A stretch of 64,000 bases of DNA, taken from the NCBI RefSeq assembly GCF_003334355.1, contig NZ_QOWP01000006.1; one strand, written 5' to 3'. Below are positions 1-4,906 of the stretch, piece by piece (the first letter of the stretch is position 1; every line of letters starts with the position of its first letter). The notes beneath the pieces are model-generated. The model searched no databases. It was not told the DNA's origin and was given only the letters and a program-made list of their open reading frames with translations. A program made the position numbers and the translations under genes. The DNA is from Escherichia coli (GTDB taxonomy: Bacteria > Pseudomonadota > Gammaproteobacteria > Enterobacterales > Enterobacteriaceae).

Positions 1-1046
1 CGCCGATGTCGATTATTTCCGGCGTCGGGCGGGCGGCTGAGTTTGGCGTGCTGGTGCGGGACGCCGACGCGCTGCAACGCGCCAGTACACTCGATACCGT
101 CGTGTTCGATAAAACCGGGACGCTGACCGAAGGGAAGCCGCAGGTTGTCGCAGTGAAAACGTTTGCTGATGTTGATGAAGCGCAGGCATTGCGTCTGGCG
201 GCGGCACTGGAGCAAGGTTCCAGCCATCCGCTGGCACGGGCGATCCTCGATAAAGCAGGTGATATGCAGCTGCCGCAGGTCAACGGTTTCCGCACATTGC
301 GCGGGCTGGGCGTGAGCGGTGAAGCTGAAGGTCATGCGTTATTGCTGGGCAATCAGGCGTTGTTAAATGATCAGCAAGTCGATACTAAAGCGATTGAAGC
401 CGATATTTCAGCTCAGGCATCGCAAGGGGCAACGCCTGTGCTGCTGGCGGTTGACGGGAAAGCGGTAGCCCTGCTGGCAGTACGCGATCCGTTGCGTAGT
501 GATAGCGTGGCGGCGCTGCAACGCCTGCATAAAGCGGGATATCGTCTGGTGATGTTGACCGGGGATAACCCAACCACCGCCAATGCGATCGCCAAAGAAG
601 CCGGGATTGATGAGGTGATAGCCGGGGTGCTGCCGGACGGTAAAGCCGAAGCGATCAAACGTCTGCAAAGTGAAGGACGTCAGGTGGCAATGGTGGGCGA
701 CGGCATTAACGATGCGCCAGCGCTGGCCCAGGCAGATGTCGGCATTGCAATGGGCGGCGGCAGTGATGTTGCCATTGAAACCGCGGCGATTACCCTGATG
801 CGCCATAGCCTGATGGGCGTTGCGGATGCGCTCGCTATTTCCCGCGCAACGCTGCGCAACATGAAGCAGAACCTGCTCGGTGCCTTTATCTACAACAGCA
901 TCGGTATTCCGGTCGCCGCCGGTATTTTGTGGCCGTTTACTGGAACACTGCTTAACCCGGTAGTTGCCGGAGCGGCAATGGCGCTCTCGTCGATTACCGT
1001 AGTGAGTAACGCCAACCGGTTGCTGCGGTTTAAACCGAAGGAATAA
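1..1046 (+). CDS. copA: Copper-exporting P-type ATPase CopA, C-terminal part (5' end lies outside window)
   Basis: Frame is open to the window start; translation carries P-type ATPase hallmarks (DKTGTLT phosphorylation motif, [14 protein letters not shown] hinge); stop TAA at 1044..1046. Confidence 0.93.
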
Positions 1047-1260: not shown

Positions 1261-1602
1261 TTACGCGACCTTTTTTGCACGCTCTTCACGGCGTGCCAAA
1301 TATTCAGCCACTGTTTCAATCCGTCCCAATTCTTCCTGGGTGCGCAGGTTGTTTTCAACTTCCCAAAGATCAACCGCCGCCTGGAGGTTTAGCCAAAAAT
1401 CGACTGTGGTATCAAAAACTTTCGCCAGACGAAATGCCATCTCAGTAGTGAGTTTACGATTGTTATTGATCAGTGCACTGACGCTATTACGATGAACATG
1501 CAGCAACTCTGCTAACTCATTGATTTTCAAATCGAGCGGTTCCAGATATTCATAGAGAAGAATATCTCCGGGTGTCGTCGGTTTTCTTGTTGCCTGTTTC
1601 AT
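1261..1602 (-). CDS. ybaQ: HTH-type regulator YbaQ (XRE/HigA antitoxin-like, no adjacent toxin gene)
   Basis: ORF 1261..1656(-); start placed at internal Met (MKQATRKPTT...) giving 113 aa; helix-turn-helix region LKINELAELLHVHRNSVSALINN typical of the XRE/HigA family. Confidence 0.8.
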   Translation of the reverse strand: MKQATRKPTTPGDILLYEYLEPLDLKINELAELLHVHRNSVSALINNNRKLTTEMAFRLAKVFDTTVDFWLNLQAAVDLWEVENNLRTQEELGRIETVAEYLARREERAKKVA

Positions 1603-1739
1603 GGTTTTTAACTGTTGCTTCCTTGTGAATAGCGATGCAAGAACATACTGAATCATACAAACACATTAAACAAGTCTCCAACTCCATTTGCGCCATCCCT
1701 CACCGCGCGCTAGCATGATATTTCACAAAGGGAGGTCGT

Positions 1740-2534
1740 ATGGATCTGTTGTACCGGGTAAAAACGCTTTGGGCCGCGCTGCGCGGTAATCATTACACCT
1801 GGCCTGCCATCGATATCACCCTCCCCGGCAATCGCCATTTTCATCTGATTGGCAGTATTCATATGGGTAGCCACGATATGGCTCCCCTGCCCACCCGTTT
1901 GCTCAAAAAGCTCAAAAACGCCGATGCGCTGATCGTCGAGGCGGATGTTTCCACCAGCGATACGCCTTTTGCTAATTTGCCTGCCTGCGAGGCGCTGGAA
2001 GAGCGCATTAGCGAGGAGCAACTCCAAAACCTGCAGCACATTAGCCAGGAGATGGGCATTTCTCCCTCACTCTTTTCTACCCAACCGCTGTGGCAAATCG
2101 CGATGGTTCTTCAGGCGACGCAGGCACAAAAACTGGGGCTGCGGGCAGAATACGGTATCGATTACCAGCTATTGCAGGCGGCGAAGCAACAACATAAACC
2201 CGTGATTGAACTGGAAGGGGCTGAAAACCAGATTGCCATGTTGCTCCAGCTCCCTGACAAAGGACTGGCGCTGCTGGACGATACGCTGACCCACTGGCAT
2301 ACCAACGCACGGTTGCTGCAACAAATGATGAGCTGGTGGCTGAATGCACCGCCGCAAAATAATGATATAACGCTGCCCAATACGTTCAGTCAGTCGCTGT
2401 ACGATGTGCTGATGCATCAGCGAAATCTCGCCTGGCGGGATAAATTACGCGCCATGCCGCCGGGGCGATATGTGGTCGCGGTCGGTGCACTACACCTGTA
2501 TGGAGAAGGGAATTTGCCGCAAATGTTGCGCTAA
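1740..2534 (+). CDS. ybaP: TraB/GumN-family protein YbaP
   Basis: ORF 1740..2534(+), 264 aa; preceded by GGAGG SD (aagggaggtcgtATG); protein recognised as E. coli YbaP. Confidence 0.85.
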   Translation: MDLLYRVKTLWAALRGNHYTWPAIDITLPGNRHFHLIGSIHMGSHDMAPLPTRLLKKLKNADALIVEADVSTSDTPFANLPACEALEERISEEQLQNLQHISQEMGISPSLFSTQPLWQIAMVLQATQAQKLGLRAEYGIDYQLLQAAKQQHKPVIELEGAENQIAMLLQLPDKGLALLDDTLTHWHTNARLLQQMMSWWLNAPPQNNDITLPNTFSQSLYDVLMHQRNLAWRDKLRAMPPGRYVVAVGALHLYGEGNLPQMLR

Positions 2535-2617
2535 AAAAATGGCCAATATCGCTATTGGCCCGTCAAAGAGGAATTTCATTTTTTTATTATTATGCCGTCA
2601 CTTTAAGCGACGGTGTA
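2535..2617 (-). ncRNA. chiX: Hfq-dependent small RNA ChiX (MicM/SroB)
   Basis: Minus-strand sequence ACACCGTCGCTTAAAGTGACGGCATAATAATAAAAAAATGAAATTCCTCTTTGACGGGCCAATAGCGATATTGGCCATTTTTTT: 5' stem-loop, AU-rich single-stranded stretch, then GC hairpin plus U-run terminator; lies in the ybaP-ybaK gap; not in the ORF track. Confidence 0.85.
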
Positions 2618-2722: not shown

Positions 2723-3217
<495 letters not shown>

Positions 3218-3253: not shown

Positions 3254-4906
3254 TTACTGCCAGCTCACCTCACCTTTCGGTTCATAAACACTCACATCCA
3301 GCGGCGAGCTTTTCTGGATATACGCTTTCAGCACTTCGGCATCAATAAAGCCGGTATTCACATAGCCCGGTTTGTTATCAAGGCGCGGATATCCATCACC
3401 GCCGGTGGCATTGAAGTTTAATGTCGCCATACGGTAAGTTTTCGCCGGATCGACCGGTTCGCCTTTGATTTTAAGGTCGTTCAGTTTGCCGTCTTTCGCC
3501 ACAAAGCTAACGTTGGCAAATTGCGGGTAGGCACCTGAATCTGGCTTCATCTGCGCGACGGCGGTCAGGTAATCAATCACCTCTTTACCGGTCATGTCGG
3601 CATACACCACCACATTGCCGAATGGCTGCACTTTCAGCACGTTTTTATAGCTGATATCGCCTGCTTCGATAGAATCACGAATTCCGCCTCCGCTCATCAC
3701 CGCAAAGTCGGCACCAGTGCGATCCATTTGGGCTGCCAGAATCAACCGCCCCATATTGGTCTGTACAAAACGCACTTTGTCACGATCGCCTTCCAGACGA
3801 CCATTGGTTTCGCCTATTTTCACTTCCAGCTGCGCTTTGCCTTTGTTCTGGAACGGTGATAACAGCGAGATCATTTGCTGGTTTTCAGCGATTTCAGGAG
3901 TGTAAAGCACGCGCTCGCTTTTCCCGTCTTCCCAGGTCACTTTCTTCTTCAGGTTCACCGGAATCAGCTGGTAGTTAACCATTTTCATTTCGCCATTACG
4001 AAACTCAAAATCAGCCCGTCCCACGTATTTGCCCCACTCATGCGCCTGCACAATCCAGATGCCGTTTTGTTGATCTGGTTTGCATGGCGTACCCGGCACG
4101 TAATCGACCTGTTTTTTGTTTTCTGCCGCCATGCAGACCGGATCTTGCGAGTGACCACCGACGATCATCGCCAGCGATCCGGCAGGCAGCGCGCGTGCCA
4201 TCTCCACATCGCCCGGTGCGTTAGAGCCGTGCTCACCATTATCGTAATGCCCCATATGGGTCGCCGCGATAATAATGTCTGGCTTTTCTGTCTGTTGCAG
4301 CTCCTGAATCACCAGCTTCGCTTCATCGGCGGGCTTACGAAATTCGATATCAGTGAAGTATTCCGGGTTACCAATTTTTGCTGTGTCATCGGTTGTCAGC
4401 CCAATAACGGCAATTTTCAGATCCTGACGCTTAAACAGCGCCCACGGTTTAAACAGGCGCTCGCCAGTACTTTTCTGGTAGATATTCGCGGAAAGCAACG
4501 GGAACTTGGCCCACTTTTCCTGCTGGCGTAATACGGTGAGCGGATTATCAAATTCATGATTACCGATCGCCATCGCGTCATAGCCCACCAGATTCATACC
4601 GCGAAAATCAGGTTCGGCATCCTGTAAGTCAGACTCGGGCACGCCAGTGTTAATGTCGCCACCGGAAAGTAGCAGCACGCTACCGCCTTCAGCCGCAACC
4701 TCTTTGCGGATACCATCCACCAGCGTTTTTTGCGCCGCCAGACCATATTCGCCATATTCATTGCGCCAAAAATGCCCATGATGATCATTGGTATGCAGAA
4801 CTGTAATTTTGTAGGTTTTATCCTGCTCATACGCCAGAGCAGTTTCACTCGCCAGTGTAAATGTGGTTAACAGCGCTAACGCCACGCCCCGCTGCAATAA
4901 TTTCAT
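3254..4906 (-). CDS. ushA: Periplasmic 5'-nucleotidase / UDP-sugar hydrolase UshA
   Basis: ORF 3254..4906(-), 550 aa; N-terminal signal peptide (MKLLQRGVALALLTTFTLASETALA); calcineurin-like metallophosphatase motifs (DHHGH, GNHEFD). Confidence 0.93.
   Translation of the reverse strand: MKLLQRGVALALLTTFTLASETALAYEQDKTYKITVLHTNDHHGHFWRNEYGEYGLAAQKTLVDGIRKEVAAEGGSVLLLSGGDINTGVPESDLQDAEPDFRGMNLVGYDAMAIGNHEFDNPLTVLRQQEKWAKFPLLSANIYQKSTGERLFKPWALFKRQDLKIAVIGLTTDDTAKIGNPEYFTDIEFRKPADEAKLVIQELQQTEKPDIIIAATHMGHYDNGEHGSNAPGDVEMARALPAGSLAMIVGGHSQDPVCMAAENKKQVDYVPGTPCKPDQQNGIWIVQAHEWGKYVGRADFEFRNGEMKMVNYQLIPVNLKKKVTWEDGKSERVLYTPEIAENQQMISLLSPFQNKGKAQLEVKIGETNGRLEGDRDKVRFVQTNMGRLILAAQMDRTGADFAVMSGGGIRDSIEAGDISYKNVLKVQPFGNVVVYADMTGKEVIDYLTAVAQMKPDSGAYPQFANVSFVAKDGKLNDLKIKGEPVDPAKTYRMATLNFNATGGDGYPRLDNKPGYVNTGFIDAEVLKAYIQKSSPLDVSVYEPKGEVSWQ

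Follow-up and report, generated by a model that had tools for sequence, protein, structure and literature searches.

How a gene for an antitoxin comes to persist in a chromosome that has no toxin gene beside it is the question raised by ybaQ in the stretch of Escherichia coli DNA analyzed here (64,000 nucleotides in full, hereafter the window). YbaQ was classified as a solitary antitoxin in 2007 (RASTA-Bacteria; PMC2374986), and the literature already covers its orphan status as well as what the missing toxin is and where it lies. In strains of phylogroups B2 and F, the toxin gene higB-1 lies directly upstream of ybaQ, which is essential in those strains (Rousset et al., 2020; bioRxiv 10.1101/2020.05.25.114553). 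Knockdown of ybaQ results in de-repression of higB-1, and higB-1 is absent from K-12 and from most phylogroups, with both genes having been lost in phylogroup D; ybaQ is dispensable where the toxin is missing, as in the K-12-like strains that have lost higB-1 (bioRxiv 10.1101/2020.05.25.114553).

The overall account given below is that a higB-1/ybaQ pair was inserted in Escherichia and that its toxin was then lost, leaving an orphan YbaQ; this account is very probably correct. What was lost with the toxin, in which order the losses took place, and why the antitoxin is retained are considered in turn.

ybaQ and Its Chromosomal Neighborhood

The part of the window that concerns ybaQ contains the following features (coordinates of the window, strand, and nature of the feature, with its basis in parentheses).

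6-1046, plus strand: 3′ end of copA (gene order in the window).
1047-1260, no strand assigned: REP/BIME cluster between the convergent copA and ybaQ (two 63-nt direct copies; Rfam naRNA4).
1261-1602, minus strand: ybaQ coding sequence, 113 amino acids plus stop codon (ORF list, TIGR02607, HTH_3, PDB 2EBY, RefSeq annotation).
1264-1281, minus strand: RAKKVA, the last six ybaQ codons, corresponding to the ClpXP recognition tail (C-motif-2) (sequence and PMC9775585).
1393-1557, minus strand: helix-turn-helix (HTH) DNA-binding domain, YbaQ residues 16-70 (Pfam HTH_3, E 1.6e-10).
1603-1739, no strand assigned: spacer of 137 bp between the divergent ybaQ and ybaP, with no toxin ORF (six-frame translation, tblastn and HMM).
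1609-1677, no strand assigned: filler of 69 nt in place of 408 nt of toxin-bearing strains (alignment of the three locus states).
1652-1680, minus strand: predicted sigma-70 promoter for ybaQ (consensus scan).
1678-1739, plus strand: ybaP-proximal segment, native upstream DNA of ybaP (common to all E. coli alleles and in part to Citrobacter).
1740-2534, plus strand: ybaP, TraB/GumN family, the native divergent neighbor (annotation; adjoins copA in Citrobacter).
2533-2616, minus strand: sroB/ChiX sRNA (Rfam).
2738-3217, plus strand: ybaK (gene order in the window).
3254-4906, minus strand: ushA (gene order in the window).

Positions 1000-2000 of the window are 100% identical to the corresponding DNA of E. 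coli strain PSS-12. Within the REP cluster, an Rfam naRNA4 match of 80 bits lies at 1158-1235. This cluster is missing from the fetched B2/F-type and ybaQ-less alleles, in which the alignment has a gap, and among toxin-less alleles copA and ybaQ are separated by anything from about 60 to 210 nt, which indicates that the REP cluster is a variable insertion. The small RNA sroB (ChiX/MicM) is found in the ybaP–ybaK spacer, its expected place in E. coli, with an Rfam score of 82 bits (gathering score, 44).

YbaQ as a HigA-Family Antitoxin

The ORF at 1261-1602 on the minus strand is translated into a protein of 113 amino acids (MKQATRKPTT...RAKKVA), to which a preliminary description of this DNA had ascribed the HTH architecture of HigA-type antitoxins. 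Profile searches bear this out. YbaQ scores 105.3 bits against NCBIfam TIGR02607 (“HigA family addiction module antitoxin”), an equivalog model with a curated cutoff of 47.7 bits, and HTH_3 is matched at residues 16-70; the profiles matched are those of antitoxin families, with no match outside them. A score above the curated cutoff in combination with an XRE-type HTH places YbaQ in the HigA family, and the RefSeq name of the locus is the same (“ybaQ: HigA family addiction module antitoxin”). The crystal structure deposited as “putative HTH-type transcriptional regulator YbaQ” (PDB 2EBY) is identical to YbaQ of the window at 112 of 113 residues, and the next-best PDB relatives are the HigA, VapI, and GraA antitoxins, the GraA chains 6F8S_A and 6F8H_A being matched with E ~5e-10. 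In an alignment of toxin-partnered YbaQ homologues, the HTH region is the most conserved stretch. Judged from these matches, YbaQ of the window is a HigA-family type II antitoxin and a predicted XRE-type HTH repressor. As no HigB-type toxin lies upstream of it in the window, the family assignment rests on orthology and not on a local gene pair.

An extended form of YbaQ (131 amino acids) beginning at the first in-frame ATG, at 1656, was rejected: the annotation and the crystal construct both start at 1602, and the ATG at 1656 sits within the predicted −10 hexamer.

The C-terminal RAKKVA of YbaQ is on the list of ClpXP C-motif-2 substrates (PMC9775585), and the tail is in use as a transplantable degradation tag (PMC2907309; PMC6195910). 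Most of the toxin-partnered homologues have similar C-termini of the K/N-V/A-A type in the alignment, so the lability of YbaQ looks like an inherited antitoxin trait.

Absence of a Partner Toxin from the Window

The preliminary description had found no toxin-sized ORF in the 137 bp upstream of ybaQ (1603-1739) and only REP elements downstream (1047-1260), and had called YbaQ an orphan antitoxin; for the window, all of this holds. The upstream spacer has a coding capacity of 45 residues at most, with all frames interrupted, and the six frames of 1603-1739 and 1047-1260 are either broken by stop codons or yield REP translations. A tblastn search with HigB-1 gave no match in 1047-1260, in 1603-1739, or elsewhere in the 64-kb window, the best hit lying at an unrelated site with an E value of 0.11. 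When positions 1000-1800 were searched with an HMM derived from 11 HigB homologues, noise alone was returned (E ~2, negative bit scores), and six-frame translations of the whole window yielded nothing at E <= 100. As positive controls, the same HMM recovered the toxin genes of ATCC 25922 and Enterobacter sp. Bisph1 (L016), both frameshifted pseudogenes, with E values of 5e-48 and 2e-24. On these grounds, the possibility that what is left of a decayed higB lies in the spacer or the REP cluster was rejected, tblastn and the HMM being empty there though frameshifted controls were recovered. Rfam searches near ybaQ gave nothing beyond the REP-derived naRNA4 matches and sroB. Thus, no HigB-like ORF or coding sequence adjoins ybaQ, and the toxin-first arrangement, with a HigB-type (PF05015) toxin directly upstream, is absent from the window.

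That an unrecognized partner is present all the same, whether as a small ORF, a toxin of another family, or ybaP, is extremely unlikely: the spacer does hold small ORFs of 27, 33, and 48 amino acids, yet nothing positive speaks for them and no RelE/HigB-like signal appears in any frame, the ATG of the 27-residue ORF (at 1635) reading ATA in three other toxin-less loci (L007, L008, and L012, described below), the other ORFs overlapping ybaQ or ybaP out of frame, and ybaP being the native neighbor of copA in Citrobacter, which has no ybaQ.

The Missing Toxin HigB-1 and Three States of the Locus

The statement that ybaQ has no partner, correct for this strain, does not extend to the gene: in 1,267 of 5,426 complete E. 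coli genomes, the toxin gene occupies precisely this site. A survey of these genomes with positions 1000-2000 of the window as the query shows the locus in three states. The toxin segment (higB-1) occurs as one copy in each of the 1,267 genomes, is chromosomal, and lies at this locus every time. The layout of the window, with ybaQ and without the toxin, is found with at least 80% query coverage in 3,561 of the 5,426 genomes, and ybaQ as such is present in 4,834. In the third state, represented by about 590 genomes (~11%), neither gene is present and copA and ybaP remain with no ybaQ.

In toxin-bearing alleles, a “type II toxin-antitoxin system RelE/ParE family toxin” is annotated between ybaQ and ybaP. 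The toxin of strain CT30 (L004:1982-2284) consists of 100 amino acids, is encoded on the same strand as ybaQ 35 bp upstream of it, and matches the Pfam family HigB-like_toxin (PF05015) with E 3e-32; the solved structure that it matches best is GraT of Pseudomonas putida (6F8S_B, E 2.8e-15). The ybaQ partner of higB-1 in B2 and F strains is the same gene at the same chromosomal locus as ybaQ of the window, and in the strains examined the sole difference between the two YbaQ proteins is M86L. Whereas the B2/F alleles have the gene for the 100-residue HigB-1, its operator and promoter, and a Shine-Dalgarno (SD) sequence for ybaQ, the window has none of these and carries 69 nt of unrelated filler instead.

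The GraT–GraA pair of P. putida (PDB 6F8S, 6F8H) provides the best solved relatives of HigB-1 and YbaQ, respectively, and resembles the Escherichia pair in its toxin-first order and its fully folded HTH antitoxin. However, it is distant in sequence and belongs to another genus, and GraA has its toxin whereas YbaQ of the window has none. In the proposed account, ybaQ of the window would be the antitoxin half that has survived from a chromosomal higB-1/ybaQ type II module of the HigBA kind, closest to GraTA.

In some toxin-bearing strains, higB-1 itself is decaying. In ATCC 25922 (L001:1982-2283), it is frameshifted by shortening of an A7 run to A6, and the toxin segment spans 383 instead of 384 nt in 3 of 29 evenly sampled toxin-bearing genomes, including that of strain SYNB1934. 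In CFT073, higB-1 contains a stop codon (Rousset et al.; bioRxiv 10.1101/2020.05.25.114553).

Loss of the Operator and the Shine-Dalgarno Sequence

Thirteen toxin-bearing loci, which represent several genera, each have one exact copy of the palindromic motif GCAC-N4-GCAC-N-GTGC-N4-GTGC upstream of higB. In the B2 allele, this operator overlaps a promoter that can be read from the sequence (−35 TTGCGC, 17 nt, −10 TACAAT), and the geometry of the two, as predicted, is that of a repressor occluding its own promoter. The operator has no match in the 64-kb window at up to three mismatches, and the arrangement characteristic of autorepression, a palindromic operator overlapping the operon promoter, is absent from ybaQ of the window.

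Alignment of the locus states accounts for this absence. Positions 1609-1677 of the window (69 nt) stand in place of 408 nt that comprise the higB-1/ybaQ spacer, higB-1, and the promoter and operator. The filler has no significant similarity to the 408 nt that it replaces (score 15, against 16 ± 2.3 for shuffles), and it matches neither the Citrobacter spacers, nor the other fetched loci, nor the rest of the window. As the filler is without an identifiable source, a clean deletion does not describe the event. Upstream of the ybaQ start codon, the junction is reached after 6-9 nt (B2, GAAAGGTAAAACTATG; window, CAGTTAAAAACCATG), which means that the SD sequence of ybaQ was lost as well.

Two candidate origins of the filler were rejected. 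A degraded operator had been suggested by eye, with 8 of 16 operator bases aligned, and was dropped when neither local nor global alignment, whether to the 408 nt or to the 70-nt promoter segment, scored better than shuffles. As for a native copA–ybaP spacer, Citrobacter shares only about 55-60 nt next to ybaP.

A replacement promoter is predicted for ybaQ by a consensus scan alone, with a −35 element TGGAGA, a spacer of 17 nt, and a −10 element TATGAT (9 of 12 consensus matches). Because this promoter is a consensus match only and no good SD sequence precedes the start codon, the expression level of ybaQ is uncertain.

Order of Events between copA and ybaP

A scan for YbaQ in one genome per bacterial species yielded 17 loci. 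All 14 homologues outside copA–ybaP have a HigB-1 homologue immediately upstream (39-79% identity); their sources are Trabulsiella, two Citrobacter, four Enterobacter, two Kluyvera, Sodalis, Erwinia, E. albertii, two other Escherichia, and a Caldilineaceae MAG. Toxin-less copies are limited to three of the 17 loci, all of them at copA–ybaP: one in another E. coli (L007) and two in non-coli Escherichia genomospecies (L008 and L012). In the Citrobacter freundii complex and in C. rodentium, copA is followed directly by ybaP with a spacer of 145-153 nt and no ybaQ. This adjacency in Citrobacter, taken together with the toxin beside 14 of 14 homologues, indicates that the pair was inserted as a unit in Escherichia and that the toxin-less state is derived. 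We infer the direction of change, deletion of the toxin and not its later gain, by parsimony and not from a dated tree.

In the proposed sequence of events, a two-gene cassette would have entered the copA–ybaP interval in the Escherichia lineage, and a later rearrangement would have replaced 408 bp by 69 bp of unrelated sequence. The DNA lost in this step would have been the toxin gene, the toxin/antitoxin spacer with the ribosome-binding site of ybaQ, and the promoter with its palindromic operator.

The occurrence of the toxin-less allele in the two non-coli genomospecies (L008, L012) as well as in E. coli means that the polymorphism is either old or was spread by recombination. The 137-bp spacer is present with 92-95% identity in L007, L008, and L012, and its being common to all three points to one old allele rather than to recurrent deletions.

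The ybaQ-less allele preserves a trace of its own origin. In E. coli RM14516 (L002:1560-1731), the last six ybaQ codons (RAKKVA) and the stop codon are kept, and this remnant is joined directly to the 24 nt at the distal end of the toxin-less filler, with a 7-nt duplication (ATTTGCG ATTTGCG). Fusion of the remnant to the filler indicates that the antitoxin was lost after the toxin in this allele, by a second deletion.

Among the homologues at other loci, the HigB genes of Citrobacter portucalensis (L010:3628-3978), C. koseri (L015:2382-2684), and Enterobacter sp. Bisph1 (L016:3653-3939) have an apparent stop codon or frameshift. Inactivation of the toxin with retention of the antitoxin thus seems to be recurrent among HigB/YbaQ homologues.

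Retention of ybaQ without Its Toxin

Among the toxin-less ybaQ alleles, the pN/pS ratios are 0.11-0.18, and only 5 of the 18 differences between ybaQ of L007 and of L008 are nonsynonymous, as compared with about 77% expected under neutrality (binomial P = 1e-5). One toxin-less copy, that of L012, is frameshifted after residue ~93. In the window, ybaQ is an intact ORF that has no toxin in cis and is maintained by selection, as expected of a solitary antitoxin. On the evidence of these substitution patterns, toxin-less ybaQ is under purifying selection and is not a decaying pseudogene.

In this strain, YbaQ would be expressed at a low level from the replacement promoter, with no autoregulation at its own locus, and would be turned over (quickly) by ClpXP, with no cognate partner in cis, be it toxin or operator. 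As YbaQ of the window is identical to the working B2 antitoxin apart from M86L, it should still be capable of binding in trans, both to the operator and to toxins of the HigB-1 type. This capacity for binding in trans, or a few secondary DNA sites, is most likely what selection maintains.

Potential partners in trans are found on mobile elements. HigB-1 homologues of 80-81% identity are encoded by 92 enterobacterial plasmids, mostly of E. coli and Salmonella and ~85-90 kb in size, and by phage D6 itself. The antitoxin adjoining the D6-type HigB is 77% identical to YbaQ, and the higBA promoter of D6-like plasmids carries the same operator as that of higB-1 (GCACTTGCGCACAGTGCAACGGTGC). By these similarities, the nearest mobile relatives of higB-1/ybaQ are the higBA modules of D6-like phage-plasmids, which share with it, in addition to the 80% identical toxin and 77% identical antitoxin, the operator architecture and a C-terminus of the KK(V/A)A type. 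They differ from ybaQ of the window in being extrachromosomal, in forming a complete pair, and in being regarded as a plasmid-maintenance system; specifically, the D6 higBA pair is regarded as a system for post-segregational killing (PMC6799933). The second YbaQ copies of E. albertii (L022) and Escherichia sp. E1V33 (L013) are located on D6-like DNA. In E1V33, the chromosomal ybaQ (L012:4001-4342) is the copy with the frameshift after residue ~93, by which RAKKVA is lost, and the strain also carries a complete D6-like higBA (L013:3627-4340) on a contig of 94.6 kb, a single anecdote.

A homologous toxin-antitoxin pair thus circulates on plasmids and phages of the same hosts, in the form of D6 and D6-like plasmids, as anti-addiction would presuppose. 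The orphan YbaQ could accordingly be kept for anti-addiction or trans-immunity, neutralizing the HigB and repressing the higBA promoter of incoming elements, for which D6-like phage-plasmids of the P1 type are the main candidates; a host with YbaQ could then be cured of such a plasmid and escape post-segregational killing. This explanation is possible but rather unlikely. The 80-81% identical HigB-1 homologues on 92 plasmids and D6, associated with the same operator, are consistent with it, as are the purifying selection on ybaQ in the absence of a toxin in cis and the anecdote of E1V33, in which a D6-like copy coexists with a frameshifted chromosomal ybaQ. However, cross-neutralization at the identities of 77-80% seen here is hypothetical, and type II antitoxins often act on their own toxin alone; the missing SD sequence suggests low levels of YbaQ. 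D6-like plasmids also have phd-doc, so that neutralizing HigB alone would not free the host (PMC6799933).

By the route envisaged, YbaQ would bind the shared GCAC-N4-GCAC-N-GTGC-N4-GTGC operator and neutralize the 80% identical toxin. The classic example of anti-addiction is the chromosomal ccd of Erwinia, acting against the ccd of the F plasmid. The likeness would lie in a chromosomal antitoxin that is homologous to a plasmid-borne one circulating in the same hosts; the Erwinia ccd, however, keeps its own toxin, whereas YbaQ of the window has none. The more inclusive proposition that the toxin-less ybaQ allele, carried by about two-thirds of E. coli, would be maintained as trans-immunity both against D6-like higBA and against re-acquisition of higB-1 is to be regarded as doubtful.

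Likewise possible but rather unlikely is the explanation that YbaQ has become an autonomous transcription factor, which after loss of the toxin regulates host genes through secondary sites. Using ChIP-exo in K-12, Gao et al. (2018) obtained peaks and a motif for YbaQ and validated its binding to DNA. Such peaks in K-12, which has no operator at ybaQ, imply that YbaQ binds somewhere in genomes of this type. These peaks and the motif favor a regulatory role, as do the purifying selection on toxin-less ybaQ and its conservation without the toxin, which “suggests other functions” (Rousset et al.; bioRxiv 10.1101/2020.05.25.114553). Against such a role, ybaQ is dispensable in toxin-less strains and absent from ~590 genomes, the window has no operator-like site at three or fewer mismatches, and the literature consulted names no YbaQ target gene or phenotype.

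That ybaQ is a neutral relic, a leftover that has yet to decay, is highly improbable. Its dispensability in toxin-less strains, its disappearance from ~11% of genomes by a second deletion from the toxin-less allele, the frameshift in L012, and the loss of the SD sequence and operator would all fit such a relic. They are opposed by the pN/pS of 0.11-0.18 among alleles of E. coli and two other Escherichia genomospecies (P = 1e-5), and by the integrity of the gene, which has at least 80% query coverage in 4,831 of its 4,834 carriers.

Probable Decay of a Chromosomal Toxin–Antitoxin Module

Read as the remainder of an inserted higB-1/ybaQ pair, the locus is a natural example of the decay of a chromosomal toxin-antitoxin system, in which the toxin and the control region go first, selection keeps the antitoxin in place, and some lineages subsequently lose the antitoxin too. 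This explains how a “core” gene is essential in only some lineages of E. coli. The decay itself has already been published; what is added here is the loss of the operator and the SD sequence, the 69-nt filler, the order of loss (toxin, then ybaQ), the purifying selection on ybaQ, and the homology to D6-like modules. If trans-immunity were true, an orphan antitoxin of the core genome would shape which strains can be “addicted” by widespread plasmid prophages.
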